This document shows, one piece after another, positions 8,253-28,317 of a stretch of 30,213 nucleotides of DNA. This stretch comes from Clostridia bacterium (lineage in GTDB: Bacteria; Bacillota; Clostridia; Oscillospirales; CAG-272). Each line of letters opens with the position of its first letter. Positions within the stretch are counted from its first letter, which is position 1. The stretch spans positions 1 to 30,213 of the forward strand of contig JAKSPV010000001.1 in assembly GCA_024404475.1 (NCBI GenBank), given 5' to 3'. A program made the position numbers and the translations under genes. Under the pieces are notes generated by a model. The model did not search any database and was not told the origin of the DNA. It saw nothing but the letters and a program-made list of their open reading frames with translations.

Positions 8253-8271
8253 AGCGGGCGAGGGCAGCAAC

Positions 8272-9210: not shown

Positions 9211-10421
9211 AACTGATCGAAGGCGGTATATGTGCCGCAAAGGGTTTCACGGCAAGCGGGATCCATTGCGGCATCCGTAAAAATAAAACGAAGAAAGACC
9301 TTTCTCTGATCTGCAGTGAAGTCCGTGCGAATGCGGCGGCGGTCTATACGACCAACCTTGTGAAAGGGGCGCCGCTCCTCGTCACGAAAAAGCACATCTC
9401 CGACGGGCACGCGCAGGCAATCGTCTGCAACAGCGGCAACGCCAACACGTGCAACGCGAACGGTGTGGAGATCGCCGAGAAGATGAGCGATCTGACGGCC
9501 GCCGCCCTCGGCATCTCGCCGGACGACGTCGTCGTCGCCTCGACGGGCGTGATCGGTCAGCCGCTCGACATCGAGCCGATCGCGGCAGGCCTGCCGGTGC
9601 TCGCCGGGACGCTCTCGGATGAGGGCGGGGACGATGCCGCGGAAGGCATCATGACGACGGACACCGTGATGAAGAAAGTCGCCGTCGAATTCACCGTCGG
9701 CGGGAAGACCTGCCGCATCGGCGGCATCGCCAAGGGCAGCGGCATGATCCACCCGAACATGGCGACCATGCTCGTCTTCATCACCACCGACACGGCGATC
9801 TCGTCCGGGATGCTGCAGAAAGCGCTGTCCACGGATATCGCGGACACGTTCAATATGGTCAGCGTTGACGGCGATACGTCGACAAACGATATGGTCGTTG
9901 TGCTTGCCAACGGTCTCGCCGGAAACAGCGAGATCACGGAAGACGGCGAGGATTTCGCCGCCTTCATGAAAGCGCTCAATACCGTGACCGTCCACCTCTG
10001 CCGGATGATCGCCGGCGACGGGGAGGGCGCATCCAAGCTGCTCGAATGCAGCGTCACGGGCGCGAAGGATATCGCCACGGCGAAGACCATCGCGAAGAGC
10101 GTGATCTGTTCTAGTCTTCTGAAAGCGGCGATGTTCGGTGCCGACGCCAACTGGGGGCGTGTCCTCTGCGCGATCGGGTACAGCGGAGCCGACGTTGACG
10201 TCGGAAAGATCGACGTCTCGTTCAGAAGCCCGAAGGGATCGATCGCCGTATGCAGAAGCGGCGCGGGTATCGACTTCTCGGAGGAGACCGCGAAGACGAT
10301 CCTGCTTGAAAAGGAAATCGAAATTCTGGTCGGACTGAACGACGGCAGCGCCGGCGCGACGGCGTGGGGCTGCGACCTGACGTACGAATACGTCAGAATC
10401 AACGGAGATTATCGGACCTGA
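9207..10421 (+). CDS. argJ: Bifunctional ornithine acetyltransferase / N-acetylglutamate synthase
   Basis: NSGNAN, STGVIG, IMTTDT, AKGSGMIHPNMATML autoproteolysis motif, DGDTSTND, DANWGR, WGCDLTYEYVRING. ATGA overlap with argC. Confidence 0.97.
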   Translation: MKLIEGGICAAKGFTASGIHCGIRKNKTKKDLSLICSEVRANAAAVYTTNLVKGAPLLVTKKHISDGHAQAIVCNSGNANTCNANGVEIAEKMSDLTAAALGISPDDVVVASTGVIGQPLDIEPIAAGLPVLAGTLSDEGGDDAAEGIMTTDTVMKKVAVEFTVGGKTCRIGGIAKGSGMIHPNMATMLVFITTDTAISSGMLQKALSTDIADTFNMVSVDGDTSTNDMVVVLANGLAGNSEITEDGEDFAAFMKALNTVTVHLCRMIAGDGEGASKLLECSVTGAKDIATAKTIAKSVICSSLLKAAMFGADANWGRVLCAIGYSGADVDVGKIDVSFRSPKGSIAVCRSGAGIDFSEETAKTILLEKEIEILVGLNDGSAGATAWGCDLTYEYVRINGDYRT

Positions 10422-10437
10422 CGGAGGCGAACACAAG

Positions 10438-12479: not shown

Positions 12480-12508
12480 AAGCGCCGCTTCATTCCGAAG
12501 CGGCGCTT
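12480..12508. terminator. Bidirectional terminator hairpin overlapping the xylB stop codon
   Basis: aagcgccgcttc-attcc-gaagcggcgctt, with T-tracts on both strands. Confidence 0.8.
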
Positions 12509-13947
12509 TTCATGTTTTTAAGGGCAGGGTAGAGCGCGTGGAACACGCGGTATTTCTCATCGTACCGGGCGGCCTTGCCGGGATCGGGGAGGATCGTCTC
12601 CGAAACACGGATGATCGCGTCCGCGGCATCCTTGACCGTCGCGTATTCGCCGGCGCCGACCATCGCGAGCATCGCTCCGCCGAAAGAAGGTCCCTGTTCG
12701 GTCGAAAGAATACGGACAGGCATCTGTAGCACGTCGGCAATGATCTGCCGCCAAATGCGGCTTTTTGCGCCTCCTCCGCAGAGATTCGTCTCTGTCGGAC
12801 GAAGCCCGTTCGATACGGCGACTTCAAGGCAGTCCCGAAGCGCGAAAGCAACGCCCTCCATGACGGCGCGGCTCATCTGTCCGCGCGTCGTCTGCGCCGC
12901 AAGCCCGATGAACGCACCGCGCGCCGAGACGTCGTTGTGCGGCGAGCGCTCGCCGGAAAGATACGGCAGAAAGATCACGTCGCTGTCAGCCGCGGCGGCG
13001 ATCTCGGCTTCCTCGGTGGGGTAATCGGTCGAGCCGAATATATCTTCGAGCCACCACTTGCGGCAGGACGCGGCGGAGAGGATGCAGCCCATCAGGTGCC
13101 ATTTGCCGTTTGCGTGCGCGAAGCTGTGGAGCGCGTTTTTCGGATCGACGGAGAAAGCATCCTGCGAAAGAAAAATCGTTCCGCTCGTGCCGAGCGAGAT
13201 GTTGCAGCCGCCGTCCCGGACGGTGCCCGTGCCGATCGCGGCGGCGGCGTTGTCGCCCGCGCCCGCGGTCACGATGCAGTCCGGCAGACCGTATTCCGGC
13301 AGAAGCCGGCCGGTCACTTCATAACTCTCATAAAGCCGCGGCAGCCACTCCGGCTTGACGCCGCAGATTTCGCACATCTCCACCGACCAGCACTTGTTTG
13401 CCACGTCGAGCAGCAGTGTGCCCGAGGCGTCGGAATAATCGGTCGAGAAGACGCCGGTCAGCTTGTAGGCAAGGTAATCCTTCGGCAGACAGATCTTGCG
13501 GATCCGCGCAAAATTCTCCGGCTCGTTCCCGCGCATCCAGAGGAGCTTCGGCGCGGTGAAACCGGCGAACGCGATGTTGCCCGTCAGGGCAGAGAGTTTT
13601 TCTTTCCCGACGATCTCGTTGAGGTATGCGGTCTCCTTTTCGGTGCGCCCGTCGTTCCAGAGGATCGCCGGTCGGATCACGTCGTCGCTTTCGTCGAGCG
13701 CGACAAGCCCGTGCATCTGCCCGCCAATCGAAAGCCCGGCGATCTTGTCTTCGACACCTGCCGAAAGCACGCCGAGAATTTCCTTGGCGGCGAGGAGCCA
13801 TCCGGCGGGATCCTGCTCCGTCCAGCCGTCTTGCGGGTAGAGAACGGGGTAGTCTACCGCCTTTTGCCGGAGGATATTTCCGTCCTTGTCACAGAGGATC
13901 CCTTTGCAGGAAGACGTGCCGAGGTCTACTCCTATATAGTATTTCAT
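12490..13947 (-). CDS. xylB: Xylulokinase (FGGY family)
   Basis: YIGVDLGTSS, GQMHGLV, ILWNDGR, FTAPKLLW, DYSDASGT, GAGDNAA, SLGTSG, YLSGERSPH, GGGAKS. ATG at 13947 preferred (GGTGA SD); an alternative GTG is at 13956. Confidence 0.95.
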   Translation of the reverse strand: MKYYIGVDLGTSSCKGILCDKDGNILRQKAVDYPVLYPQDGWTEQDPAGWLLAAKEILGVLSAGVEDKIAGLSIGGQMHGLVALDESDDVIRPAILWNDGRTEKETAYLNEIVGKEKLSALTGNIAFAGFTAPKLLWMRGNEPENFARIRKICLPKDYLAYKLTGVFSTDYSDASGTLLLDVANKCWSVEMCEICGVKPEWLPRLYESYEVTGRLLPEYGLPDCIVTAGAGDNAAAAIGTGTVRDGGCNISLGTSGTIFLSQDAFSVDPKNALHSFAHANGKWHLMGCILSAASCRKWWLEDIFGSTDYPTEEAEIAAAADSDVIFLPYLSGERSPHNDVSARGAFIGLAAQTTRGQMSRAVMEGVAFALRDCLEVAVSNGLRPTETNLCGGGAKSRIWRQIIADVLQMPVRILSTEQGPSFGGAMLAMVGAGEYATVKDAADAIIRVSETILPDPGKAARYDEKYRVFHALYPALKNMKSAASE

Positions 13948-13952
13948 CGATT

Positions 13953-15266
13953 TCACCCGAAGAGGATCTGGTTGACGACGGCTTCGAGGTGCTCCGCCTT
14001 GCCGCTGCCCGGCAGCGCCGGTGCGCCGAGCGTGTCGGCGTATGCCGCAAGTTCGACAAGCGTCGAATTACCGTCGCGGATCTTCTTGCCGATGCCGCTC
14101 TCGAAACTCGCGTAGCGCTCCTTGACGAACGCGTCGAGGCGGCCGTCTTTGATGATTTTCTCGGCGTTCAATAGGCCGAGCGCGTAGGTGTCCATGCCGA
14201 GAATGTAGCTCTCGACGAGGTCTTCCATCGTGTAGGACGGGCGGCGGCACTTCGCGTCGAAGTTGAAGCCGCCGGTGAGTCCCCCTGCTCGCAACACTTC
14301 CAGCATGCAGTACGTCGCGGTATAAACGTCGAACGGAAACTCGTCCGTGTCCCAGCCGAGGTGCGGGTCGCCCTGGTTGGCGTCGATACTGCCGAGCATG
14401 CCGTTCATCCCGGCAATGCGGAGGTCGTGCTCAAAGGTGTGCCCCGCGAGCGTCGCGTGGTTCGCCTCGATGTTGAGCTTGAAATCCTTGTCCAGCCCGT
14501 ACTCGCGGAGGAAGCCGATCGCGGTCGCCGCATCGTAGTCGTACTGGTGCTTCATCGGCTCCTTCGGCTTCGGCTCGATGAAGAAATCGCCGGTAAAGCC
14601 GAGCGAGCGGGCGTAATCGACCGCCATGTGCATGAGCCGGGCGATGTTCTCCTGCTCGAATTTCACGTCGGTGTTGAGGAGTGTTTCGTAGCCCTCTCTG
14701 CCGCCCCAGAACAGGTACGCTTTGCCGCCGAACTTGACGGTCAGGTCGATCGCCTTTTTGACCTGCGCCGCGGCAAAGCAGTACACGTCAGCGGAGTTCG
14801 TCGAGCCGGCGCCGTTCATATAGCGCGGGTTGGAGAACAGGTTCGCGGTGCCCCAGAGGCACTTGATCCCCGTCTCGTTCATCTTCGCGAGGATGTGGTC
14901 GGAGATCTCGTCGAGCCGGCGGTTCGTCTCTTTGATATCGTCGGCCTCGGGGACGAGATCGACGTCGTGGAAGCAGAAATAGCGGATGCCGAGTTTCTGC
15001 ATGAAATCAAAGCCCGCATCGACCTTGGCTCTGGCGTGCGCCATCGTGCCTTTTTCCGCGCCGAACGATTTGTCGGCGGTGTCTCTGCCAAACATATCCG
15101 TGCCGGCAGCGCCGAGCGTGTGCCACCACGACATCGCAAACGGCAGATGCTCGCTCATTTTCCTGCCGAGTACGATGCGCTCGGGATCATAGAAGTGGAA
15201 CGCCAGGGGATTTTCGGAAGCGGCGCCCTCATAGCGGATCGCCGGGATGTTTTCGAATGCAGCCAT
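13953..15266 (-). CDS. xylA: Xylose isomerase (class II, 437 aa)
   Basis: Start re-called at ATG 15266 (RBS GGAGG). SWWHT, FHDVDL, LWGTANLF, WGGREGY, IEPKPKEP, NIEANHA, GWDTDEF. Confidence 0.97.
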   Translation of the reverse strand: MAAFENIPAIRYEGAASENPLAFHFYDPERIVLGRKMSEHLPFAMSWWHTLGAAGTDMFGRDTADKSFGAEKGTMAHARAKVDAGFDFMQKLGIRYFCFHDVDLVPEADDIKETNRRLDEISDHILAKMNETGIKCLWGTANLFSNPRYMNGAGSTNSADVYCFAAAQVKKAIDLTVKFGGKAYLFWGGREGYETLLNTDVKFEQENIARLMHMAVDYARSLGFTGDFFIEPKPKEPMKHQYDYDAATAIGFLREYGLDKDFKLNIEANHATLAGHTFEHDLRIAGMNGMLGSIDANQGDPHLGWDTDEFPFDVYTATYCMLEVLRAGGLTGGFNFDAKCRRPSYTMEDLVESYILGMDTYALGLLNAEKIIKDGRLDAFVKERYASFESGIGKKIRDGNSTLVELAAYADTLGAPALPGSGKAEHLEAVVNQILFG

Positions 15267-15303
15267 AATACTTGCCTCCGGTGAACGGAATTTTGTTGCC
15301 TCT

Positions 15304-15332
15304 ATTATACCGTATTTTTCCGTGTTTTGCAA
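15304..15332 (-). promoter_or_regulatory. sigmaA promoter of xylAB
   Basis: Minus strand TTGCAA-17 nt-TATAAT. Confidence 0.75.
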
Positions 15333-15365
15333 TTCCCGCACGGCTTTTTCCGTCGCACGAATGAA

Positions 15366-15397
15366 AAAACACCTGCCGAAACATCGGCAGGTGTTTT
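15366..15397 (-). terminator. Intrinsic terminator of the hydrogenase operon
   Basis: aaaacacctgccga-4 nt-tcggcaggtgtttt, with a T-tract on the minus strand. Confidence 0.85.
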
Positions 15398-15409
15398 CTT
15401 TTTGTAAAT

Positions 15410-17134
15410 TCAGACCGTCCACTCGCTCTGCTTTGTGTGGAGCAGCTCGTGCGATCTGTGTGAGAGCGGCTTTCCGAAATATTCGCCGTACAACGCCTGA
15501 ACGTCGGGGTTCTCGTGCGAGAAGCGGATCGGATTCTGCCGATCGAGCTCGTAGAGTACCGCGCCGCGGTCTGCTGCCTGCTCGACGCCGTCCGTGATCG
15601 GCTGACCGCCGCCGCCGGCGCATCCGCCGGGGCAGGCCATGATCTCGATGAAATCGTACGGTGCCTTGCCGGATTTCACTTGCTCGCAGAGAGCGCGCGC
15701 GTTTGCAAGTCCGCTGGCGACTGCCGCGCGTACCTTTACGCCGGCGATCTCGACTTCGGCCGTCCGGATGCCGGCGGTCTCCGTCGCGCGAACGGCTTTG
15801 AAATCGTCCGCACCGGGATTCTTGCCGGTCAGGAGATAATACGCGCTGCGGAGCGCTGCTTCCATGACGCCGCCTGTCGCGCCGAAGATGACGGCGGCGC
15901 CGGTGCCGGTGCCGAGCGGCGAGTCGAACTCGCGTTCCTCGAGCGACGAAACGTCTACGTGCGCGGCTTTCAGCATGCGCTCAAACTCGCGCGTCGTCAG
16001 AACGACGTCAACGTCCTTCGCGGACGCCCCGTTTACTTCGGGTACGTCACATTCGTATTTCTTTGCCGTGCAGGGCATGACGGAGATGCAGAACAGTTTC
16101 TCCGCGGGAACGCCGAGCTTTTCGGCAAAATAACTCTTCGTCACGGCGCCGAACATCTGCTGCGGGCTCTTCGCCGTGGAGAGATTGTCGCACAGCTCAG
16201 GGTATTCGTGTTTCACGAAGCGCACCCAACCGGGGCAGCACGACGTGAACATCGGCAGCTTGTAGTCATTCGGATGCGTCATGCGTTCGATGAATTCGGA
16301 GCCCTCCTCCATGATCGTGAGGTCGGCGGTGAAGTTCGTGTCGAATACGTAGTCGGCGCCGAGCGCTTTCGCGGCGGCGGCCATGCGTTTTTCGGTGGCC
16401 AGCTCTTTTGAAAGGCCGAGCCCGTCGCCCCATGCGGCGCGTACCGCAGGCGCGATCTGCACGACAGTGATCTTCTCGCTGTCCGCGATGGCGCGGAACG
16501 CCTTTTCGGTGTCGTCACGCGCGACGAGCGCACCGACGGGGCAGTGCGTGATGCACTGTCCGCAGAGGGCGCAGCCGGCTTCGTTCATCGAAAGACCGTC
16601 CCGGATCGTCACTTTCGTGTGCGCGCCGGAGCCGTTCACTTCCCAGACGCCGAGTCCCTGCACCTTCTCGCAGACGTTCACGCAGCGCCAGCATTTGACG
16701 CACTTCGTCTCGTCGCGCACGAGCGGGAAACCGGCAAGCCAGTTGTTTTTCGGAAGTTTCGTTTCGTAGGGGATCTCGCCGATGTTCATCTCTTCGGCGA
16801 GCGTCTGCAGCGTGGAGTTGCCGTTCCGGTTGCAGGGGGGGCAGTGGCAGCTGTGCGGCGAGAGGAGCAGTTCGAGGTTGACGCGCCGTGCCTCGCGCAC
16901 GCGCTCGGAGTTCGTGAGGATCTCCATGCCCTCGGCAGCGACCGTGTTGCAGGCGGCGGAGAGTTTCGGCTCGCCTTTGATCTCCACGACGCAGACGCGG
17001 CACGCGCCGACGTCATTGAGCCCCCGCCAGTAGCAGAGTGTCGGAATGGCGATGCCGGCCGTCTTTGCCGCTTCGAGGATGGTCGTACCCTCGGCGACAG
17101 TGATGACTTTACCGTCGATTTTCAGCGTTACCAT
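15410..17134 (-). CDS. hydA: [FeFe]-hydrogenase group A catalytic subunit (2Fe-2S, His-ligated 4Fe-4S, 2x4Fe-4S, H-cluster)
   Basis: Start re-called at ATG 17134 (RBS AGGAGG). H-cluster motifs TSCCPGW, MPCTAKKYE, EIMACPGGCAGGGGQP. Also CY..GACRVC..AAC, CVKCWRC and CALCGQC. Confidence 0.95.
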   Translation of the reverse strand: MVTLKIDGKVITVAEGTTILEAAKTAGIAIPTLCYWRGLNDVGACRVCVVEIKGEPKLSAACNTVAAEGMEILTNSERVREARRVNLELLLSPHSCHCPPCNRNGNSTLQTLAEEMNIGEIPYETKLPKNNWLAGFPLVRDETKCVKCWRCVNVCEKVQGLGVWEVNGSGAHTKVTIRDGLSMNEAGCALCGQCITHCPVGALVARDDTEKAFRAIADSEKITVVQIAPAVRAAWGDGLGLSKELATEKRMAAAAKALGADYVFDTNFTADLTIMEEGSEFIERMTHPNDYKLPMFTSCCPGWVRFVKHEYPELCDNLSTAKSPQQMFGAVTKSYFAEKLGVPAEKLFCISVMPCTAKKYECDVPEVNGASAKDVDVVLTTREFERMLKAAHVDVSSLEEREFDSPLGTGTGAAVIFGATGGVMEAALRSAYYLLTGKNPGADDFKAVRATETAGIRTAEVEIAGVKVRAAVASGLANARALCEQVKSGKAPYDFIEIMACPGGCAGGGGQPITDGVEQAADRGAVLYELDRQNPIRFSHENPDVQALYGEYFGKPLSHRSHELLHTKQSEWTV

Positions 17135-18957
17135 TTCGTGTTTCTGCCTCCTTTCAGCGAGCCGCAGCCGTAGTGATCGCACCGCAGGCAGCGCGAGCAT
17201 TCCTGCATCGCTTCCTCGCGGCTGATCGGTTTTTCCATAAGATCGAAATCGTCTTTTCTGTCTTCGGCGTCGCGTTCCGTGTTCGTCACGCGCCCTGCGG
17301 CGGGCTTGAATTTGTACGTGGGCGCAGGAATATCAACGAGCGACGAAATGTCGGTGTGACAGCCGAGATAGCCGTCAATGTTCGCCGCGGCGACCTTGCC
17401 GGCCTCGATCGCGCGGATGACCGTCGCGGGACCGGAAACGCAGTCACCGCCGGTGAAGACACCTGCGCAATCGGCAGCGGCACCGGCCTTATCTGCGGTG
17501 AAAGCGCCGCGGTTGACCGCCATGCCGGCGGCGGCAAACGGCTTCGAGTCGATCGCCTGACCGATCGCCACGATGATGACGTCGGCAGGAATTTTTTCTT
17601 CGGGCGCGTCCGCGTCATACGGCTTCGGACGGCCACGGTCGACCTCGCCGATCACCTGCGGCTGGACAACGAGTGCGGTGACGTTTCCGTCTCTGTCCGC
17701 CTCAATGCGGACGGGTGCCTTGAGCGGCACGATCTCGCAGCCCTCGGCCATCGCGCCTTCTACCTCTTCGGGAAGCGCGGTCATGTCTTCCACACGGCGG
17801 CGGTAGACACATCTGACCGACTTCGCACCGAGACGCATCGAAGTGCGCGTGACGTCCATGGCGACGTTGCCGCCGCCGACCACGATGACGTTCTTGCCCG
17901 TGAAGTCGGGCTTGTTCCCGTCGCCGATCGAGCCGAGCAGTTCCACGGCGGAGATGACGCCGCGGGAATCCTCGCCGTCGATGCCGAGTTTCTTGTCGGC
18001 GTGCGCACCGATCGAAACGTATACCGCGTCGTAGCCGGCGCGGAGCTCGTCAAACGGAATATCTTTCCCGACGCTGACGCCGAGTTTCACTTCAATGCCG
18101 AGCGAGAGGATGACGTCGATGTCGGCGTCAAGATACGCGTCAGGCAGACGGTAGCAGGGAATACCGTAGCGGAGCATGCCGCCGAGGCGCTGGCGTTTCT
18201 CGAAAACGGTAACGCTGTGTCCCATCAGCGAGAGGAAATACGCCGCGGTAAGTCCTGCGGGGCCGCCGCCGACGACGGCAACGGTCTTGCCCGTCGCGGG
18301 TGCCTTTGCGGGTGCGGGAACGACGCCGGCATTGTCAACGGCGTAGCGTTTCAGTCCGCGGATGTTGATCGGTGCATCCACGAGCGAGCGGCGGCAGTGC
18401 GCCTCGCACGGATGTTCGCAGATCAGTCCGCAGACGGACGGGAACGGATTGTCCTTGCGGATCACGCGGACGGCGTCGGCAAAGCGGCCCTCGCCGGTGA
18501 GCGCGATATAGGCGGGAATATCAACGTGCGCCGGGCACTCCGCCGAGCAGGGAACGGCGGCGAAGTCCGCGGTGCAGCGGTTCTTTGTCAGATGAGAGAG
18601 ATAGTCGTCACGGAAGGCGGCCATGCCGTCCAGAACGAGCTTCGCGGCCTCAAAACCGATCGCGCAGTCGGAGGAATCGGCGATGGCGCGTGCGGTGCGC
18701 TCGATGAGCGCGAGGTCTTCGGTGCTGCCTTCGCCGTCGAGCAGCGCGTCGATCAGCGCGGCGAGTCGGTCAAGACCGACACGGCAGGGAACACATTTGC
18801 CGCAGCTTTGGGCGAGACACAGTTTCAGGAAAGCGGAGGTCAGTTCGACGGGGCAGTTGCCTACGGGCGACGCGCCGATCCGGCGGCTGAGCGAATCGTA
18901 AAGGCCGCGGACGGTCTTTTCCGCACGGCTCTGCTGCGTGATTTCAAGTCTGTTCAT
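17128..18957 (-). CDS. GltD/NfnB-like FeS flavoprotein with an N-terminal NuoF-type 4Fe-4S module; hydrogenase partner subunit
   Basis: Start re-called at ATG 18957. SCGKCVPCR..DCAIG; PCSAECP..NPFPSVCGLICEHPCEAHC; GGGPAG (FAD); GGGNVA and YRRR (NADP-type); C-terminal CSRCLRC. Overlaps the hydA start by 7 nt. Confidence 0.9.
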   Translation of the reverse strand: MNRLEITQQSRAEKTVRGLYDSLSRRIGASPVGNCPVELTSAFLKLCLAQSCGKCVPCRVGLDRLAALIDALLDGEGSTEDLALIERTARAIADSSDCAIGFEAAKLVLDGMAAFRDDYLSHLTKNRCTADFAAVPCSAECPAHVDIPAYIALTGEGRFADAVRVIRKDNPFPSVCGLICEHPCEAHCRRSLVDAPINIRGLKRYAVDNAGVVPAPAKAPATGKTVAVVGGGPAGLTAAYFLSLMGHSVTVFEKRQRLGGMLRYGIPCYRLPDAYLDADIDVILSLGIEVKLGVSVGKDIPFDELRAGYDAVYVSIGAHADKKLGIDGEDSRGVISAVELLGSIGDGNKPDFTGKNVIVVGGGNVAMDVTRTSMRLGAKSVRCVYRRRVEDMTALPEEVEGAMAEGCEIVPLKAPVRIEADRDGNVTALVVQPQVIGEVDRGRPKPYDADAPEEKIPADVIIVAIGQAIDSKPFAAAGMAVNRGAFTADKAGAAADCAGVFTGGDCVSGPATVIRAIEAGKVAAANIDGYLGCHTDISSLVDIPAPTYKFKPAAGRVTNTERDAEDRKDDFDLMEKPISREEAMQECSRCLRCDHYGCGSLKGGRNTKW

Positions 18958-18991
18958 AAAAGGAGCTCCTTTTGATGTAACGATCAACAAT

Positions 18992-19020
18992 ATAATGCCA
19001 CAAACCGCGCCAAAATGCAA
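18992..19020 (-). promoter_or_regulatory. Putative promoter of the hydrogenase operon
   Basis: Minus strand TTGCAT-17 nt-CATTAT with a TGn extension. Confidence 0.55.
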
Positions 19021-19070
19021 GAGATATGACGACTTTTGCGCGCTTTTGTTCGGAAATGGCAAAAAGAAAA

Positions 19071-19095
19071 CGGCATCTCCCGGGGGGAGATGCCG
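19071..19095 (-). terminator. Intrinsic terminator closing the PHP/BMP/ARH operon
   Basis: cggcatctccc-3 nt-gggagatgccg, followed on the minus strand by ttttcttttt. Confidence 0.85.
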
Positions 19096-19113: not shown

Positions 19114-20490
19114 TCAGAGAGCACCGAGCCGCACGGTCTTTTTTGCCAGAGCGCGGATCGAGACTTTCTTGATCTTGCGCATGTACGTGATCAGCTCGTC
19201 ACCGATCGGATCGCGCCATGCGGCGGGAACGTTCTTCCGGGAGGCGATCGCTACGACGCTGGCGATCTGCGCGGCGTTGCAGTCCACGTCGTAGCCCTGC
19301 ATCGCGCTGATATGCATCGTCTCGTCGAAATCGCCCTCGCCGAACCAGAGCGCCACGACTTCCGCGGCAGCGTTCGGGTAGGCGTGGATCCAGTTGTACC
19401 GTTCGTAGCGTTTTTCGCAGACCGCCCACGCTTCCTGCCACGTACCGTGCGTCCGGCACTGTTCGAGCGCAAAGCGGACGACGGAGGCGTATTCGCTTTT
19501 CTCCGGGATCAGGGAGACGGCCTCTTCGACGATCTCGCGGACGTCCGTCTTGACGTAGGCGAGCGACACGAGCACCGCGTTGAAGACTTCGCCGAGCACG
19601 CCGTTGTTGTGGTGGGAGACCTGTCCGTCGGTAAACGCCAGCTTCGCCGCGAGATACGGATCACCGGGCGCGACCATGCCGCACACGGCGCCGCGCATCT
19701 GTGCGCCGATCCATTCGCGGTAGGGGTTGTTGCATCTGCCGCTCTCCGGCGGGAAAATGCCGAGTTTCAGATTTTGCAGCGCACGGTCTTCCGCCGACCA
19801 GCCGGCGGGGATGAGCGCCACCCACTGTCCGGCGATATCCGCCGAGGTGAGCCCTTTGCCGCTCTTTTCGAGCGCCTCGAGAAACGCGAGCTCATAGGTG
19901 ATGTCATCGTTGTAGGTGTTCGGCTTGCGGACGTAGCCGCGGATATCGCCGAAGACCTTTTCGATGTTTTCCTTCGTGTAGCCCTCGATCGCCGTGCCGA
20001 GCGCACCGCCGCAGATCTGTGCGATCCAGCCGTAGTACGTCAGTTCCTCGTAGAGCGGGGAAGACGTGTCGAAATCGTACCGGCGGGGAGAAACGTCTTT
20101 CTCGTAATCCTCAAACGATTCGTACTGTCTGTATTGCCAATAGGGATGCGACGGGATCTTCGGGGCGATGTTCAGAAGACGGAAAACTTCGGCGGCGAGA
20201 CGCATCATCTCGGCGTAGTCTTTCTTTTCCACAGCCGCGGCGCCGGCGTCAATCAGCTTTTCCACCTCGGAGACGTCGTAGCCCATGTTCTCCATGTCCT
20301 GCATGGCGGCAACGATAACGTGCTCGGTCGCACCGGAGCCGGGGACGTTGCTGTGCCAGAGAAGCTCTGCCGCGCGGTTTTGCTCAAGAGCGGAATCTTC
20401 ACAGTCCTTCCAGCCCTGCTCCTCTTCTTCGAGGACGACGGGAATGGAGGTCCGCATCGTTTCGCATTCGATTTCCCATGCTTTTTTCAT
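19114..20490 (-). CDS. ADP-ribosylglycohydrolase (ARH/DraG superfamily) with a ~140-aa N-terminal extension
   Basis: GWIAQICGGALGTAIEG, NDDITYE (TDD-like), WIGAQMR, DGQVSH, GYDVDCNAAQ (DxD metal motif). Confidence 0.85.
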   Translation of the reverse strand: MKKAWEIECETMRTSIPVVLEEEEQGWKDCEDSALEQNRAAELLWHSNVPGSGATEHVIVAAMQDMENMGYDVSEVEKLIDAGAAAVEKKDYAEMMRLAAEVFRLLNIAPKIPSHPYWQYRQYESFEDYEKDVSPRRYDFDTSSPLYEELTYYGWIAQICGGALGTAIEGYTKENIEKVFGDIRGYVRKPNTYNDDITYELAFLEALEKSGKGLTSADIAGQWVALIPAGWSAEDRALQNLKLGIFPPESGRCNNPYREWIGAQMRGAVCGMVAPGDPYLAAKLAFTDGQVSHHNNGVLGEVFNAVLVSLAYVKTDVREIVEEAVSLIPEKSEYASVVRFALEQCRTHGTWQEAWAVCEKRYERYNWIHAYPNAAAEVVALWFGEGDFDETMHISAMQGYDVDCNAAQIASVVAIASRKNVPAAWRDPIGDELITYMRKIKKVSIRALAKKTVRLGAL

Positions 20491-20499: not shown

Positions 20500-21408
20500 T
20501 TACTTTTCCTTTTTGTTTTTGTTGATGACCGCGTAGATGACGAGCGCCGCGATCGTCATGAGATAGGGCAGCGTGTTGAGCAGCTCGTAGGGGAACGTCA
20601 GAACGGTCTGCGCCCCCACGGAGAAGTAGTCCACCGCACCGAACAGGAGTGAGAAAAACGCGGTGCGCCAGGGACTGCCGAGCCCCATCGCCTCCGCCGC
20701 GATGCCGATAAAGCCGCGGCCGGCGACCATGCCCGCCGAGAAATACTGCAGGTAGCTCATCGAGAGGAAAGCGCCGCCGAGACCGGCGAACACGCCGCAG
20801 ATGATGAGCGCCTTGACCTTGACGACCCTCGTCCGGATGCCGACGCTTTCGGCAACCGCGGGGTTGAAGCCGGTCGCCTTGATCTCCGTGCCGAGCTTCG
20901 TTCTGCGGAGCAGGAACGAGAGGAAGATCGCCGCGAGAATGGCCACGTAGAAGAGAACGCTCTGGTCGAAAAGCAGTTTCCCGATGACGGGAATATCGCG
21001 CAAAACGGGAATGGAGATTTTCGGGATGGCAACGGCCGCCGCGGCGGACGAGTCACCCTTGACGCCGAGCACGGCGTAGAGCACGTAAACGCTGAGACCC
21101 GTTGCCAGCGTGTTGAGCGCGATACCGGAAAGGAAACTGTCCGTCCGGAGCCGCAGCGCGGCGAGCGCGAGCAGCAGCGACATGAGAACGCCGACGGCCG
21201 CCGCGGTCAGAAGACCGAGCACCCAGCTGTTCGTAAAGTGGCTGACGAGCGTGCCGCAGACGGCGGCGACGGACATGCTGCCTTCAATGTTGATGTTGAC
21301 GATGCCGGCACGGTTCGAGATCAGCGCCGCGAACGCCGCGAATACGATCGGCAGCGCGAACATCACGGAACTCAGAAGAAAATCTTCGCTGAAAATAAAT
21401 CCGATCAT
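20500..21408 (-). CDS. ABC transporter permease (BPD_transp_2, nucleoside/BMP type)
   Basis: RAGIVNINIEG, RTKLG.EIKATGFNP, GVFAGLGGAFLS, AGRGFIGIAA, LPYLMTI. Confidence 0.92.
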   Translation of the reverse strand: MIGFIFSEDFLLSSVMFALPIVFAAFAALISNRAGIVNINIEGSMSVAAVCGTLVSHFTNSWVLGLLTAAAVGVLMSLLLALAALRLRTDSFLSGIALNTLATGLSVYVLYAVLGVKGDSSAAAAVAIPKISIPVLRDIPVIGKLLFDQSVLFYVAILAAIFLSFLLRRTKLGTEIKATGFNPAVAESVGIRTRVVKVKALIICGVFAGLGGAFLSMSYLQYFSAGMVAGRGFIGIAAEAMGLGSPWRTAFFSLLFGAVDYFSVGAQTVLTFPYELLNTLPYLMTIAALVIYAVINKNKKEK

Positions 21409-22493
21409 TTCGCCGCCTCCGTTTTCTTCCGGGAGAACTTCATATCCCAGAGGAATTTCGCGCCGAACAGAATGATGATCACGCCCTGGATGATGTAGAT
21501 GATCTCATTCTGCACGTCAGTATAAAGCGACATCTGCTGCGCACCGACGCGGAGGTACGCGAGGAAGAGCGACGCCAGCGGGACGAGCGCGGGATTGTTC
21601 CGCGCCATGATCGCGATGACGAACCCGTCGAAACCGTAGTTCGGCAGGGCTCTCCAAGAGAAGCGGTAATAGTTGCCGAGCAGGTACACGCCGCCGCCGA
21701 AGCCGGAAAGACCGGCGCCGATGAGCTGGCTGTACACGACGACGGAGCCCGTCCCGATGCCGACGTAAGACGCGAACTGCGGGTTGTCGCCGGTCATGCG
21801 GATCGCATAGCCCCATTTGGTCTTGTAGAGGAACAGCGCACCGAGAACGGCCGCCAGAACGGCAAAGAGAATGCCGACGGAGAGCTCGTTGTCCTGATTC
21901 AGAAACGGCAGCTTGGCGTAGTCCTCGAGATATTTCGTGACGTTGGTGTTGTCGGGATCACCGCAGACGTTGTTGACGAAATAAAGGACGACCCAGAGCA
22001 CGACGTAGTTAAGCATCAGCGAGGAAACGAACTCGTCCACGCCGAGCGCGGCTTTGAGTTTGGCGGGGATGTAGCCGATGAGGACGGCTGCGAGCGTGCC
22101 GCAGAGGATGCAGAAGAGCGGGACGAGGAACGAGGAACCCTCGCTTGCCAGCTCCGGCGCGAGAACGGCGGCGACGAAGGCGCCGACGAAGAATCCGCCC
22201 TCGACGAACATGTTGAACTGACCGGCGCGGGACATGATCGACACCGCGACACCCGTGAACATCAGCGGGATCGACTCGGTAAGCACGCGGCTGAGCGTGT
22301 AGCTGTCTTCAAACGGGGAAGTGAGGAAAACGCGGACGGTCTCGAAGGAGCCCTTGCCCGCGACGAGGATCACGGCGACGGCGAATGCCAGCGAAAGCGC
22401 GAGCATGACGAGCGTCTTTGCGATCTCGCCGAGAACGCTTTTCGCTTCCTGCCCGGAAACACAGCGGCGGAAGCGGTCAATGATATCAACCAT
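21405..22493 (-). CDS. ABC transporter permease (BPD_transp_2, nucleoside/BMP type)
   Basis: Start re-called at ATG 22493 (RBS GGAGGT). RAGQFNMFVEG, DEFVSSLMLNY, TKWGYAIRMTGDNP, YGFDGFVIA. Confidence 0.92.
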   Translation of the reverse strand: MVDIIDRFRRCVSGQEAKSVLGEIAKTLVMLALSLAFAVAVILVAGKGSFETVRVFLTSPFEDSYTLSRVLTESIPLMFTGVAVSIMSRAGQFNMFVEGGFFVGAFVAAVLAPELASEGSSFLVPLFCILCGTLAAVLIGYIPAKLKAALGVDEFVSSLMLNYVVLWVVLYFVNNVCGDPDNTNVTKYLEDYAKLPFLNQDNELSVGILFAVLAAVLGALFLYKTKWGYAIRMTGDNPQFASYVGIGTGSVVVYSQLIGAGLSGFGGGVYLLGNYYRFSWRALPNYGFDGFVIAIMARNNPALVPLASLFLAYLRVGAQQMSLYTDVQNEIIYIIQGVIIILFGAKFLWDMKFSRKKTEAAK

Positions 22494-24009
22494 GCTGCAC
22501 CTCCATACGTTCCAGACCGAGCATATACCGGCCGAGCTGTACCTCGTCAACGGAAGAAACGTCCGTGATATCGGCGGTGATCTCGCCGTCGTGGAAGACG
22601 ATGATCCGGTCCGCGAGACTGAACACCTCGGCGAGATCGGCGGAAACGAGGATCACGGCTTTGCCTGCGTCGCGCATGGCGACGATGCGTTTGTGGATCG
22701 TCTCGATCGCGCCGATATCGACGCCGCGCGTCGGCTGATCGGCGACGATGAGTGCGGGATCGCTGTCGAGCTCGCGTGCCACGACGACCTTCTGCATGTT
22801 GCCGCCGGAAAGCATGCCGATCTTCTGGTTCAGCGTGCCTTTGATGCCGTAGTCGGCGATCTGCCCGCAGCTTCTTTCCCGCAGCTTTTTCGTTTTGAGA
22901 AAACCGAGACGGCTGTTCTCGGCGTAGTCGAGCGCGATCAGATTGTCGCAGATCGACGCCGCCGTGTTGCAGCCCGTCGTCATGCGGTCTTCCGGAATGT
23001 GGGAGAGACCGAGTTTCCGGATCTTGCGGATCTTCATGCCGGCGACGTTCACCCCGCCGAAGCGGATTTCGCCGGTATATTTCCTGTTCAGCCCGCAGAC
23101 GGAGCGGACGACTTCGCGCTGACCGTTGCCCTCGACACCGGCGATACAGAGGATCTCGCCGCGGTGCGCCGAGAAACTGACGCCGCTGACGGCGTTCCTG
23201 CCGCCTTTGCCGCGTACCGTAAGGTCCGTGACCGTGAGCAGCGCCTCACCGGGCTGTGCCTTTTCTTTGTCCACCTTCATCTGCACGTCGCGCCCGACCA
23301 TGAGCCGGGAGATCTCCGCTTCGGAGACGTCGCTGATGTTGTAGACGCCGACGTTCTCGCCCTGCCGCATGATCGTCACGCGATCGCAGAGCGCCATGAT
23401 CTCTTTGAGTTTGTGGGTGATGATGATGATCGTGTAGCCGCTCTTTTTCAGAAGACGGAGCTGCCCGAAAAGCTGTTCGGTCTCCTGCGGCGTCAGAACG
23501 GCGGTCGGCTCATCGAGAATGAGGAGTTGCGCGCCGCGCGCCAGGACGGTCAGGATCTCGATCTTCTGCGCGGTGGAAGCGGAGACGTCGGCGGCGCGAG
23601 CCGTGAGATCGACGTGCATATCGTACTTCTCGCAGAGCTCCTCCGCACGGCGGATCATCTCTTTCTTTTTGAGGACGCCGAGGGCGTTTTTCTCCTCGAT
23701 GCCGAAGAAGATGTTTTCCCACGCGGTGAACTGACCGACCAGCATGAAATGCTGATAGACCATGCCGATGCCGAGCGCGCCTGCGGCGCGCGGCGAGTTG
23801 ATGCTGACTTTCCGACCGTCGAGAAAGATCTCGCCGTCGGCTTTTTCGGCGCCGTACAGCACTTTCATGATCGTGCTTTTGCCGGCTCCGTTTTCGCCTG
23901 CAATGGCGTGGATCTCACCCTTTTCGATGGAAAGATTCACGTTTTTGTTGGCAACGACACCGCTCGGGTAGACCTTCGTGATGCCGCGCATTTCGATGTA
24001 ACCGGACAT
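22486..24009 (-). CDS. ABC transporter ATP-binding protein, tandem NBD (CUT2/NupA type)
   Basis: GENGAGKST, GMVYQHF, ILDEPTAVLTPQE, GVEGNGQ, LSGGNMQKVV, QPTRGVDIGA. Confidence 0.95.
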   Translation of the reverse strand: MSGYIEMRGITKVYPSGVVANKNVNLSIEKGEIHAIAGENGAGKSTIMKVLYGAEKADGEIFLDGRKVSINSPRAAGALGIGMVYQHFMLVGQFTAWENIFFGIEEKNALGVLKKKEMIRRAEELCEKYDMHVDLTARAADVSASTAQKIEILTVLARGAQLLILDEPTAVLTPQETEQLFGQLRLLKKSGYTIIIITHKLKEIMALCDRVTIMRQGENVGVYNISDVSEAEISRLMVGRDVQMKVDKEKAQPGEALLTVTDLTVRGKGGRNAVSGVSFSAHRGEILCIAGVEGNGQREVVRSVCGLNRKYTGEIRFGGVNVAGMKIRKIRKLGLSHIPEDRMTTGCNTAASICDNLIALDYAENSRLGFLKTKKLRERSCGQIADYGIKGTLNQKIGMLSGGNMQKVVVARELDSDPALIVADQPTRGVDIGAIETIHKRIVAMRDAGKAVILVSADLAEVFSLADRIIVFHDGEITADITDVSSVDEVQLGRYMLGLERMEVQHG

Positions 24010-24011: not shown

Positions 24012-25181
24012 TTATTTGGACGGGTCGAGTCTGTCAAACAGCGCGTTGAGATCGGCGGAAGACGTATAGCGTTTCAGACCGCTCTGCACGGTCAGCTCGC
24101 CGGAGACGATCTTCGCGGCAACGTCCGCGAGATACGCTCTGTTTTCTTCGGAAACGAGGGCACGGAAGTTTTCATTGTCCGCGTAGCCGATCTTGCCGTC
24201 GGCAACGCCGAGGACTTCGAGGTCGCCGTAGGTCAGCGTGCCGGTCATGAACTTCTCGCACGCTTCGTAAAGTGTATCACCGACGCGCTTCTCGATCGAC
24301 GTGACGATGACGGCCGCCTTGTCGGGATCGGAATCCTTGTAGTAGGCGTACTGGTCGCTGTCGACGCCGATGATCGTCTTGCCGCCGAGCTTCGCCGCTT
24401 CGATGCAGCCGATGCCTGCCTGGCTGGCCGCTGCGAAGAGGATAGAAACGTCGTTGTTGTAGTAGGCCTGTGCAAGAGATTTGCCCTTCGGGCTGTCAAC
24501 GAAGTCGCCGATGAAGGCGTGGTAAGCGCCGATCGACGAGGACTTGTCGGCATTGACGGCTTCGACGCCCTGCATGAAGCCGGAGGCGAAGTCGTTGATG
24601 ATATCGTTCGCCGCACCGCCAATGAACGCGGTGTTGGCAGCGCCGCTTTCGAGCGACAGAAGTCCCGCGAGAACGCCGGCGAGATAGCCGCCCTCGTTCT
24701 GGCTGAACATGATGGAGTGTACGGTCGGATAGTCAGCCGCTTTACCGTCCTTGATCTCCGTGTCGAAAATCACGAAGCGGCGGTCGGCGTATTTCGATTT
24801 CTTCACGAGGCGCTGGAGCGGCTCGCGCATGTCAGTCGTGCCGACAATGATGAGATCGTATGCCTCAGCGGCGGTCTTGGCAAGGAGGGACTCATACACG
24901 GTCGCGTCGCTCGAACCCATTTCCACGATCTTCACTTCCGCTTCGGGGTGATCAGCCTGGAAGCGGAGCATGCCCTCGTTGGCGGAGTCCCAGAAGGACA
25001 TATCGCCGAGGTCGCCGTTGATGAGCAGCGCCACGCGGAATTTTCCGTCATCGAGAGAGGCAACGCCGGAAGAGGAGGGGTCGGAAGGCCCCGCGGGATC
25101 GTCGTCGCACGACACGAGGGATACGGCGAGAGCCGCCGTCATAAGAAGCGCCAGAAGAAGCGCGGTGATCTTTTTAAACAT
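24012..25181 (-). CDS. BMP family substrate-binding lipoprotein (PnrA/NupN/RfuA-like)
   Basis: Signal peptide ending LVS-C; GDLGDMSFWDSA, EGGYLAG, FAAASQAGIG, GVDSDQY, TSIEKRV. Confidence 0.92.
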   Translation of the reverse strand: MFKKITALLLALLMTAALAVSLVSCDDDPAGPSDPSSSGVASLDDGKFRVALLINGDLGDMSFWDSANEGMLRFQADHPEAEVKIVEMGSSDATVYESLLAKTAAEAYDLIIVGTTDMREPLQRLVKKSKYADRRFVIFDTEIKDGKAADYPTVHSIMFSQNEGGYLAGVLAGLLSLESGAANTAFIGGAANDIINDFASGFMQGVEAVNADKSSSIGAYHAFIGDFVDSPKGKSLAQAYYNNDVSILFAAASQAGIGCIEAAKLGGKTIIGVDSDQYAYYKDSDPDKAAVIVTSIEKRVGDTLYEACEKFMTGTLTYGDLEVLGVADGKIGYADNENFRALVSEENRAYLADVAAKIVSGELTVQSGLKRYTSSADLNALFDRLDPSK

Positions 25182-25241: not shown

Positions 25242-25269
25242 GCGGCGGAGCCCCGGGGGACTCCGCCGC
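25242..25269 (-). terminator. GC-rich intra-operon hairpin (partial terminator or mRNA stabiliser)
   Basis: gcggcggag-10 nt-ctccgccgc, 10 nt after the DUF4430 stop codon, with only a weak downstream U-tract. Confidence 0.5.
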
Positions 25270-25279: not shown

Positions 25280-25741
25280 TTACCAGACTACTTCTTCAAA
25301 GCTGTAAAGGAGGTAATCGCCTTCAAAGACGTGAACGTCGTTGCAGGCAAAGTTCGTGGGGTTGTTGCCGTTGTACTGCCACATCCAGTAGGTGTTGGTG
25401 TTCGCGTCGTTGACGTAGCTGCCGATGGAGGTCACGAAGCCGACTTCGAGGCCTTCCTGGGACAGTTCTTTTTCTTCAACGGCTGCCTTGAAGAACTCGG
25501 AAGCGTACAGCGTGTCGCTGGTGAGCTTCACAGTGCCGCAGTAGAGCACGGTGTCGCCGGCAACGATCTTGACGTTGGCGGTAACGGTGCCGGCCCATTC
25601 GGAATGGCCATCCACTTCGGAAACGGTCGTGTCGGTGCCGACTTCAAACGGTGCCTTCGGAGCTGCGGGTTCATTGTTGCAAGAGCAAGCGAGAACGCAA
25701 ACCATTGCAAGCACGAGGAACAGAGCGGTGAGTTTTTTCAT
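25280..25741 (-). CDS. Small lipoprotein with a DUF4430 (transcobalamin C-terminal-like) domain
   Basis: Signal peptide ending LACS-C. C-terminal GFVTSIGS...YWMWQYNG...D.HVFEGD pattern typical of DUF4430. RBS AAGGAG. Confidence 0.7.
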   Translation of the reverse strand: MKKLTALFLVLAMVCVLACSCNNEPAAPKAPFEVGTDTTVSEVDGHSEWAGTVTANVKIVAGDTVLYCGTVKLTSDTLYASEFFKAAVEEKELSQEGLEVGFVTSIGSYVNDANTNTYWMWQYNGNNPTNFACNDVHVFEGDYLLYSFEEVVW

Positions 25742-25791: not shown

Positions 25792-27315
25792 TCAACGAAT
25801 GAATACGGGGTTCGAGATCGCGTAGATCGCTTTCGCGCCGAGCACTTCGACGAGCACCCAGTCGCCCGAGACGAGCGAGGAGATCGTCACGTCACCCTCG
25901 AACGAGGTGCCGTTCACTTCGATCTCGCGGACGGTCTCGCCGTTCACGACGAAGCGGATCTTTTCCATGCCTTCGCGGCACGTTACGCTGCCGCTGAAGG
26001 TGAGTTCACCGCTTTCGGCGTCGGCAGTCTCGCCGAAGATCGCGCCGTTCGCGGTGAGGGTCATAACGGGGCCGTTCGTCAGGTAGGAGTGACCGTTCCT
26101 GACGGCGTCGAGAATGTTCTCCTGGTTGATCTCGCTGTCGCCGAGGTACACGTAGGTGGCGATGCAGCCGCTGTACTTGCCGGCGTAGCGGCAGTAGTTT
26201 TGGTACTCGGAGAGCTTCGTGAACGTCTCCGGGAACTGATTGCGGACTTCTGCGGAGGCGTAGCCCGTGGAGTCGTGGTTGTCCGTACCGCTGGTCGCGG
26301 CGATGAACGCGCCGCCTTCCTTGACGCGGTTCAGAAGCGAATACCAAAGGAGTTTCGCCTGGTAGTTCTGGTTGTCGGTGTTCATCGTTTCAAACCGGCC
26401 GTCGGGCACCGTGAAATATGAGTTCCAGATCTCAATGGTGTCAAAGTTTTCGAACAGTTCGTAGTCGGTCGCGTCGAGAAAGTTCATCGCGCCCATGTTG
26501 GTGATCGAGTACGGGTGGTTGATCTGCGAAACGCCGCCCTGCAGGCGGATCTGCCGGGCGATGTAGACGATCTTGTCGCGGCAGATGGCGTTCTTGTCCT
26601 TGTTGGCGCGTTCCGCGTCGGTCAGGTTGATCTCATACTTGTCGTAGGTCATGCCGGTGCCGATGCTCTGGAAATGACCGAATTCCGTCGTGACTTCGCT
26701 GCCCGCCATGCCGAGGAAATTGCGGTGCGCGCCGGCCGCGTCCGTCAGAACGTTGATCGCGTTCGTTTCACGCCATTCCGGAACGCCGCGGGAGGTGTTG
26801 TGGTCGGTCAGGAAGCCCCAGTACATGCCGGTCGCCGCATTGGCAATGGCGAGGTCGGTAATGGAATCCGCGCCGTCGGAATAGGTGCTGTGCATGTGGA
26901 GGTCGCCGGCGATCCAGCCGTCTGCATACGAATCGGAAAGCTGATTCAGACGCACGTCGCGGAGGAAGTACGTTTTCAGACTTTCGACTTCGATCGTCGT
27001 CGTATAGGTGTTGAATTCAAAGCCCTTGGTGAAGGTCAGCGTGTATTTGCCGGGCGCCAGCTCGAGGTGATAGCCGCCGAAGGCGTTCGTCGTCTCCATG
27101 TGGCAGTTGTTTTCTTCGTCCACGATGATGATGCCGGCGATCATCATGTCGCCGTCGCCGGACAGGACCTTGCCGCGCACGTTGCCGGCAGGCGCGGAGG
27201 TGTTATCCGTGATGACCGCCGGGGTGTCGGCTTCCTCTTTCCCACAGGAGAAAAGGGCGGCCGGAAACATCAGAACGGCAAGCAGCAGAGAAACGAAACG
27301 CAGTGTCTTTTTCAT
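25792..27315 (-). CDS. PHP-superfamily metallohydrolase lipoprotein (CehA/McbA-like) with an N-terminal beta-sandwich
   Basis: Signal peptide ending LFS-C; carboxypeptidase-regulatory-like module (LELAPGKYTLTFTKG). Full PHP ligand set: GDLHMHS..SDG, TDHN, GSEVT..GH, INHP, IEIWN, GTDNH, GHSYLTNGP. Confidence 0.85.
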   Translation of the reverse strand: MKKTLRFVSLLLAVLMFPAALFSCGKEEADTPAVITDNTSAPAGNVRGKVLSGDGDMMIAGIIIVDEENNCHMETTNAFGGYHLELAPGKYTLTFTKGFEFNTYTTTIEVESLKTYFLRDVRLNQLSDSYADGWIAGDLHMHSTYSDGADSITDLAIANAATGMYWGFLTDHNTSRGVPEWRETNAINVLTDAAGAHRNFLGMAGSEVTTEFGHFQSIGTGMTYDKYEINLTDAERANKDKNAICRDKIVYIARQIRLQGGVSQINHPYSITNMGAMNFLDATDYELFENFDTIEIWNSYFTVPDGRFETMNTDNQNYQAKLLWYSLLNRVKEGGAFIAATSGTDNHDSTGYASAEVRNQFPETFTKLSEYQNYCRYAGKYSGCIATYVYLGDSEINQENILDAVRNGHSYLTNGPVMTLTANGAIFGETADAESGELTFSGSVTCREGMEKIRFVVNGETVREIEVNGTSFEGDVTISSLVSGDWVLVEVLGAKAIYAISNPVFIR

Positions 27316-27355: not shown

Positions 27356-27384
27356 TTGACAACTATCTAATCTAATGATATGAT
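27356..27384 (+). promoter_or_regulatory. sigmaA promoter of the AraC gene
   Basis: TTGACA-17 nt-TATGAT with a TGn extension. Confidence 0.75.
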
Positions 27385-27423
27385 CTTTTTATACAGATTT
27401 CAAGCGGAGAAAAACCAAAAACC

Positions 27424-28317
27424 ATGCAGTTTGATTCAAATGTTGCAATTTTCGACACGGTCGATTTGTCGATCGAGCACCCTTTTTCGCCGGAGGGCTC
27501 GCTTTTCACTTATTATCCGTCCGCGTCGCCGAAAATGTTCCATTATCATAACTTTCTGGAGCTCGGTTACTGCGAAAGCGGCACGGGCGTGTTCAACATC
27601 GACGGCCGACCCGTGCCGTTCCACGGCAGGTGTACGTCGGTGATCTATGACGGGCAGGTGCATATCGCACAGAGCATCAACAGCGAGGGAAGTCTCTGGC
27701 ATTTTCTCTATATCGACCTCAACTGCCTCTTCGCCGACTGTGAATTCGCCGGCGTCGATTTTCTGAAACGGATGAAATTTAATAACTGGAAAAATTACGA
27801 GTTCCCGTCGATTTTGCCGGAGGCGGAGTATCCGGCGTTTTACGCGCTTTGCCGTGATATTCTGGACGAGTGCGCCGCCATGCGCGGCAACGCGATCCAG
27901 ACGGTGCAGGGGCTGACGTATTCGCTTCTCAAAAAGCACGAGCGCCTTTTTGCCGAGATGCCCGCCGCCGTCCGGCAGCGCGGGAGCGTCCCGAGCCTCG
28001 TGCAGGAACTCGGCCCGACCCTGAACTACATCAACAAGAACTACCGCGAAAACATCACGATCGACGACCTCGTCTCCGTCGCCAAAATGAGCAAGAGTAA
28101 CCTCCAACGGAAGATGATCGCCTGCACGGGAAAAGCGCCGGTGCAGTATATCCGTCATCTGCGGCTGAAATACGCGACCGCGCTGCTTCTGGACGATACG
28201 AAAACGGTCGCGGAGATCGCGGAACTTGTCGGTTATAACCTTTCGAGTTTCAACCGCCAGTTTCTGAAAGAGTACGGGGTGACGCCTACGGCATGGCGGA
28301 AAAACGGAACGATCTGA
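27424..28317 (+). CDS. AraC/XylS family transcriptional regulator with a cupin sensor domain
   Basis: FHYHNFLELGYCESGTG cupin; LNYINKNYRENITIDDL, LRLKYATALL, AELVGY..SSFNRQF.KEYGVTP..WR. Confidence 0.93.
   Translation: MQFDSNVAIFDTVDLSIEHPFSPEGSLFTYYPSASPKMFHYHNFLELGYCESGTGVFNIDGRPVPFHGRCTSVIYDGQVHIAQSINSEGSLWHFLYIDLNCLFADCEFAGVDFLKRMKFNNWKNYEFPSILPEAEYPAFYALCRDILDECAAMRGNAIQTVQGLTYSLLKKHERLFAEMPAAVRQRGSVPSLVQELGPTLNYINKNYRENITIDDLVSVAKMSKSNLQRKMIACTGKAPVQYIRHLRLKYATALLLDDTKTVAEIAELVGYNLSSFNRQFLKEYGVTPTAWRKNGTI

Follow-up and report, generated by a model that had tools for sequence, protein, structure and literature searches.

A transcobalamin-fold DUF4430 lipoprotein and a PHP metallohydrolase in a conserved, putative riboside-scavenging cassette

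The DUF4430 lipoprotein gene at 25280..25741 (minus strand) of the window, which is the whole 30,213-nucleotide stretch analyzed here, belongs to a conserved cassette encoding a PHP metallohydrolase, the DUF4430 protein, a BMP importer, an ARH glycohydrolase and usually a ribokinase. The same gene order recurs in 27 loci of Clostridia and Bacilli/Acholeplasmatales assemblies, and PHP and DUF4430 occur together in each of the 23 loci where the contig is long enough for a check (in the other four it stops short of the PHP gene). We consider it probable that the cassette performs riboside scavenging in two tiers, where a riboside would be released from a larger molecule at the cell surface, imported and split, and its ribose used.

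The DUF4430 lipoprotein and its operon

The DUF4430 reading frame encodes 153 amino acids downstream of a ribosome-binding site and begins with a lipoprotein signal (Cys19/Cys21), in which Cys21 is invariant across 14 homologues. Comparison with Pfam PF14478 gave 29.9 bits against a gathering cut-off of 23.8 (E 7.9e-7). An AlphaFold model from an alignment of 54 sequences, superseding an earlier one from 14 sequences (pLDDT 73), describes residues 31-153 with a pLDDT of 95.4 and predicts the SLBB beta-grasp fold of the transcobalamin beta domain with its hairpin insert, to which the subfamily adds an N-terminal strand of its own. Structural comparison using VIA placed haptocorrin at the top (Z 12.8, rmsd 1.8 over 97 residues), followed by intrinsic factor (Z 12.1), the human transcobalamin beta domain (Z 11.5) and bacterial 3U7Z (Z 10.5); the best unrelated match reached Z 7.5, with other beta-grasp folds at 7.5 or less. 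The top 19 rows of a Foldseek search all fall in the transcobalamin-like/DUF4430 family. Single-sequence PDB searches returned no match for DUF4430 or the ARH; profile searches did match, and for DUF4430 they recovered 3U7Z, intrinsic factor and haptocorrin by sequence as well. An earlier note on this DNA had likened DUF4430 to the beta domain of transcobalamin/intrinsic factor and proposed an HMM search and an AlphaFold/Foldseek comparison as checks; the likeness is upheld at Z 11-13, with the Pfam score above its cut-off and a fold match spanning Z 10.5-12.8 when 3U7Z is included.

Inspection of the ligand pocket reveals both retained and altered positions. By profile alignment, F102 matches the base-stacking hairpin aromatic of transcobalamin-like proteins (PMC1796856); 34 of 38 close homologues keep it, and among them W119 is invariant and Y118 is also kept. 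Cassette DUF4430 has no counterpart of the hairpin-tip aromatic that 11 of 17 non-cassette DUF4430 domains carry; some riboswitch-linked DUF4430s lack it too. A conserved pocket Gly is Ala132 in the window's protein (Gly in 18/38 homologues), and F32, G35, D37, E82 and Y143 are conserved specifically in the cassette subfamily. The isolated transcobalamin-type beta domain binds Cbl and Cbi (PMC5599065). Corrinoid contacts in this fold are mostly main-chain, so the DUF4430 sequence alone cannot decide binding. In eight related loci (L020, L023, L025-L029 and L051) the whole domain is duplicated in tandem, giving proteins of about 290 amino acids, several of which have no lipobox Cys.

DUF4430 is encoded by the second of seven minus-strand genes with intergenic gaps of -65 to 98 bp. 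In order, these specify the CehA/McbA-type PHP lipoprotein (25792..27315), DUF4430, a BMP/PnrA-type nucleoside-binding lipoprotein (24012..25181), a two-domain ABC ATPase of the sugar/nucleoside importer type identified by profile matches (22486..24009), two BPD_transp_2 permeases identified by Pfam (21405..22550 and 20500..21408) and an ARH-fold glycohydrolase (19114..20490). A cupin-AraC regulator (27424..28317, plus strand; Pfam HTH_18 and AraC_binding) is encoded divergently at a conserved position, with divergent sigma-70-like sites at 27356-27403; one branch of the cassette has AraC in this role, another a LacI/RbsR-type repressor. Folding of the spacer after the DUF4430 stop yields a 12-bp GC-rich intercistronic stem-loop (25242..25269, minus strand), where the z-score of the whole spacer is modest (-1.9); most cassette loci have a hairpin at the same place with a different sequence. 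The operon closes with an intrinsic terminator (19071..19095, minus strand), at the site where the ribokinase missing from this genome's copy is usually found. A PfkB gene adjoins 20 of the 27 cassette loci, and two of three such neighbors tested pass the ribokinase cut-off TIGR02152. An Rfam scan of the window gave no match, and no BtuF/ECF gene occurs in the operon, in keeping with the earlier note, which had reported neither a BtuF/ECF transporter nor a recognizable cobalamin riboswitch here. Its list of neighbors holds for the nucleoside-type importer, the ARH and the PHP protein, though the term 'phosphoesterase' applies to the last as a superfamily label only.

Other gene groups surround the operon. 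Directly downstream (15410-19062, minus strand) lies a two-gene hydrogenase unit in which a NuoF-type Fe-S/GltD-like flavoprotein precedes the large subunit of an [FeFe]-hydrogenase. As read from sequence, the window also contains xylose-isomerase-like and xylulokinase-like genes (12490-15623, minus strand), an arginine biosynthesis cluster (8224-12468, plus strand) including a 676-aa reading frame that appears to be an ArgB-ArgD fusion (10438-12468, plus strand), and a row encoding an SPFH-like protein with zinc ribbons, a zinc-ribbon membrane protein and a TPM-like protein (4125-7383, minus strand).

The PHP lipoprotein joins an Ig-like domain to its metallohydrolase domain, matches NF038032 with 190.5 bits (cut-off 80; E 4.7e-56) and carries the metal motifs H140/H142, H172, E207, H214, H267 and D346/H348, which are invariant or nearly so in 66 homologues. 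Cassette-type PHP proteins make up a discrete family with about 117 clusters; no DUF4430 gene neighbors the outliers at 26-28% identity, and a non-exhaustive scan of nine long DUF4430 matches contained no PHP-DUF4430 fusion. ESM Atlas returned matches only to unnamed CehA/McbA and DUF4430 clusters. Matches to PHP phosphatases are weak. Phosphodiesterase activity of the PHP lipoprotein is an assumption, because the characterized CehA/McbA enzymes are carbamate ester hydrolases only (PMC8292978).

The BMP protein, identified through Pfam Bmp and PnrA (2FQW, E 7e-25), keeps all conserved residues listed for nucleoside binders (PMC13325309), namely F63, D140, F198, F227, V273, D274 and K298. Its pocket combines an aromatic sandwich with a ribose-binding Asp/Asp/Lys set, and the operon supplies the accompanying ATPase and two permeases. 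The base-side Asn of BmpD (Asn28 in BmpD numbering; PMC7093131) is replaced by W64, and such a change to Trp or Phe suggests, at the level of sequence, a ligand with a more hydrophobic base. The replacement occurs in both cassette and nucleoside-catabolism operons, so it does not set the cassette apart.

The ARH (Pfam ADP_ribosyl_GH, E 8e-44) carries an N-terminal extension of about 150 amino acids and is the sole candidate glycosidase of the cassette. It keeps the binuclear metal ligands E169, D195/D196 and D401/D403 (motifs E, xDDT and DxDT, with the last Thr replaced by Cys). G262 and H293 are invariant and correspond, by motif alignment, to the phosphate/pyrophosphate-contacting Gly and His of ARH1/ARH3; the position next to G262, Asn or Cys elsewhere, is Ile261, preceded by Trp. 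Given the retained metal ligands and Gly/His pair, the enzyme may act on a riboside or its 5'-phosphate. ARH1 and ARH3 cleave alpha anomers only (PMC9738213), and by analogy with this family chemistry the cassette ARH probably cleaves an alpha-linked glycosidic bond. The intact BMP pocket and the ARH metal site bear out the nucleoside-type importer and the ARH of the earlier note, the ARH family being alpha-specific in its characterized members. The same genome encodes a second ARH paralogue (contig C72, L091:2004-3584) that is 28% identical and belongs to a group common across the order. At L094:8971-12231, one reading frame of 1086 amino acids combines a RecQ helicase with a homologue of the operon's ARH, representing a putative fusion or a lost stop codon.

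Conservation, ancestry and B12 context of the cassette

Cassette loci were reached from three starts: DUF4430 homologues, ARH homologues and one distant PHP homologue. ARH identity across these loci is 55-73%, and the position of DUF4430 between PHP and BMP is fixed down to about 35% PHP identity. Since the carrier genomes are related, the locus counts express conservation rather than independent events. Pairing in all 23 checkable loci agrees with the PHP-DUF4430 partnership proposed from this one stretch, and the ribokinase in 20 of 27 loci fits the ribose release that riboside splitting would bring. The cassette is not described in the DUF4430 literature searched, as judged from titles and abstracts, and the papers searched likewise give no account of PHP and DUF4430 as an addition, of its apparent single origin or of its independence from B12 regulation.

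To place the cassette among related operons, we consider loci where the same ARH subfamily and BMP importer occur without PHP or DUF4430. Fifteen loci of nucleoside-hydrolase type encode RihA/RihC-like enzymes, often with an MTA/SAH-deaminase-like gene, RbsR and ribokinase, and neither PHP nor DUF4430 was seen in them. Four further loci (L107-L109 and L040) hold an ARH that is 50-53% identical together with BMP and PsuK-like and PsuG (Indigoidine_A) genes, linking the subfamily to the catabolism of pseudouridine or modified nucleosides. More distant ARHs (36-37% identical) lie directly upstream of hutH and hutU (L104:10237-14811, L105:10714-14931 and L106:6320-11046), which suggests catabolism of ribosylated histidine or imidazole; at L104 these are joined by LacI, a ribokinase-like gene and a sugar ABC importer. 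A quick maximum-likelihood tree gathers the cassette ARHs in a single clade (SH-aLRT 86) that falls among ARHs linked to RihA/RihC/deaminase and PsuK/PsuG genes, the PsuG-linked group being its sister. Such nesting within older operon types makes the surface pair look like a single addition; most likely, an existing operon for riboside catabolism gained PHP and DUF4430 in one event. Nesting among general nucleoside-catabolism operons also indicates that the ARH did not arise in a B12 context. In 20 further loci, no ARH relative was seen within a cob operon, and a cobS gene about 30 kb from one hydrolase-type operon (G070) was examined and judged unrelated. The B12 role proposed earlier for the ARH and BMP is weakened by these results: both appear older than DUF4430 and occur in nucleoside-catabolism operons with no B12 link.

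Host cobamide metabolism was surveyed in 20 carrier genomes, which are incomplete MAGs; the cassette was seen in 19, and one was placed by the tree. A B12-binding domain is encoded in 18 of the 20, while CobS was found in three, CobT in three and CobU in two. No cobS, cobT or cobU gene lies near a cassette, none of the 15 cassette loci scanned has a cobalamin riboswitch, and no corrinoid transporter gene occurs in the cassette loci examined. One riboswitch on the contig of a cassette (G048) is about 15 kb away, heads another gene and was judged unrelated. In six carrier genomes, a different DUF4430 paralogue sits just downstream of a cobalamin riboswitch. The window's own genome encodes on contig C133 (L015:3162-4203) a second, canonical DUF4430 lipoprotein, 19% identical, followed by a CbrT-like ECF S-component gene similar to 6FNP (ECF-CbrT). 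No Rfam riboswitch was detected upstream of this second DUF4430 gene, nor was a cobalamin riboswitch found in this genome, which is 76% complete. With canonical riboswitch- or CbrT-linked paralogues present and no riboswitch on the cassette, B12 supply would fall to the paralogues and the cassette would be regulated like a catabolic operon.

Proposed mechanism and rival readings

In the mechanism that we favor, the PHP metallohydrolase would work outside the cell and release a riboside from some larger or charged compound, with DUF4430 serving as its ligand-capturing partner. The BMP ABC system would import the riboside, a step well supported by pocket conservation, and the ARH would split its glycosidic bond, probably alpha-linked from family chemistry, such that ribokinase could feed the ribose into metabolism. 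Alternatively, ribokinase may act ahead of the ARH and phosphorylate the intact riboside, in the manner of PsuK and PsuG. The AraC or LacI regulator would control the cassette as a catabolic operon rather than through B12 repression.

The best substrate that can be named, tentatively, is the cobamide nucleotide loop, used for its base and ribose rather than for remodeling. It would suit all components together, since the DUF4430 fold is one that binds corrinoids, the loop offers a phosphodiester to cut, its alpha-riboside bears a hydrophobic base, and ribose would be the product. Against it stand the general nucleoside ancestry of the ARH, a pocket that has in part diverged and the scarcity of cobamides, which are trace compounds and a poor carbon source for an inducible operon. 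We therefore regard as somewhat doubtful the full route of extracellular cobamide degradation, where DUF4430 would capture the cobamide, PHP would cut the loop and an ARH-fold alpha-nucleosidase would split the imported alpha-riboside, leaving cobinamide(-phosphate) outside. A non-corrinoid nucleotide is at least as likely a substrate. On this account, which we hold to be a serious prospect though short of an even chance, DUF4430 was repurposed for a non-corrinoid ligand, and the system would harvest modified or unusual nucleotides released as RNA or NAD is turned over, such as alpha-anomers or hydrophobic modified bases. It draws on the PsuK/PsuG, RihA/RihC and deaminase neighbors of the closest non-cassette ARHs and the hutH-hutU neighbors of more distant ones, on the BMP Asn-to-aromatic change common to those nucleoside operons, on AraC/LacI control with no riboswitch, and on the DUF4430 pocket, which is diverged and carries the subfamily residues F32/G35/D37, E82 and Y143. 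Binding of another metabolite by some transcobalamin-like members is also allowed for in PMC1796856. However, all ligand-characterized members of the DUF4430/transcobalamin-like clade bind corrinoids, cassette DUF4430 keeps F102, Y118 and W119, and the loss of the tip aromatic extends to some riboswitch-linked DUF4430s.

The remaining readings assign DUF4430 a different part. It could be a structural or activating subunit of PHP, or supply PHP with a corrinoid, rather than catch substrate; strict pairing with the PHP gene, the subfamily-specific N-terminal strand with conserved surface residues, and a post-DUF4430 hairpin that could raise the PHP and DUF4430 transcript over downstream genes are all compatible with this. 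Whole-domain tandem duplication in eight loci better fits ligand avidity, the ligand-side aromatic F102 is conserved, and we know of no PHP enzyme that needs a corrinoid, making such a role unlikely. Less credible still is the remodeling route of the earlier note, where the cassette would strip the lower ligand so that the cell could rebuild its preferred cobamide, as with CbiZ or CbiR. The B12-binding domains of 18 carriers, the precedent of CbiR and the three carriers with CobS and CobT speak for it, but it is not supported because most carriers show no CobS, CobT or CobU; moreover, CbiR homologues adjoin cob genes and no cassette does, and the operon has neither a corrinoid importer nor, in any of the 15 loci scanned, a riboswitch. 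Equally improbable is an ordinary B12-capturing lipoprotein placed in the operon by chance and unlinked to PHP or ARH. Its transcobalamin fold and cobamide-using hosts would suit that role, yet the PHP-DUF4430-BMP arrangement is fixed across Clostridia and Bacilli/Acholeplasmatales, DUF4430 never occurs apart from PHP in cassette loci, and B12 regulation is absent even though six carrier genomes have riboswitch-linked canonical paralogues.

Under the favored scavenging mechanism, the cassette joins three uncharacterized families, namely CehA/McbA-type lipoproteins, a DUF4430 subfamily and long metabolic ARHs, in one testable pathway. If the substrate is a cobamide, bacteria mostly unable to rebuild the loop would dismantle cobamides extracellularly, which would bear on how B12 is shared within gut and digester communities. 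Such degradation would supply these communities with cobinamide and free lower bases, and it would assign a substrate to an orphan ARH subfamily that is widespread. If it is not a cobamide, the cassette would present a transcobalamin-fold domain with a non-corrinoid ligand.

Relation to known systems

Cassette DUF4430 resembles haptocorrin, intrinsic factor, transcobalamin and 3U7Z in fold, beta-hairpin insert, F102, the Tyr-Trp strand and surface location. Unlike these transcobalamin-type proteins, it is paired with a hydrolase and has no alpha/alpha toroid partner, ECF/CbrT genes or riboswitch; it also differs from the transcobalamin-like clade in its shorter hairpin with no tip aromatic, the Gly-to-Ala132 change and the extra N-terminal strand. 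The PHP lipoprotein shares a PHP-like catalytic domain, above the NCBIfam cut-off, with the CehA/McbA carbaryl hydrolases. Those enzymes cleave pesticide carbamate esters, whereas the cassette subfamily consists of lipoproteins with a constant place in an operon of nucleoside type. All conserved pocket residues are shared with the PnrA/TmpC and BmpA/BmpD importers, with the difference at Asn28 (Trp or Phe).

CbiR, a phosphodiesterase, cuts the loop to Cbi-P and alpha-ribazole, and the proposed cassette cut would yield the same products as this Akkermansia enzyme, which we compare alongside CbiZ. In contrast, CbiR belongs to the AP-endonuclease-2 family and has its gene among cob genes, and the cassette enzyme is a PHP-fold lipoprotein never found beside cob genes, in hosts that mostly show no CobS, CobT or CobU. 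Closest in operon logic are E. coli yegTUV, which encodes a nucleoside transporter, the ARH-family YegU and a PfkB kinase (PMC10819704), and the RihA/RihC-RbsK-RbsR operons of nucleoside catabolism: like the cassette, they combine a transporter, an ARH or nucleoside hydrolase and a PfkB kinase under a regulator that responds to a ligand. The cassette departs from both in its ABC/BMP importer and its long ARH with an N-terminal extension, and it has two surface lipoproteins, PHP and DUF4430, in place of the Rih hydrolases.
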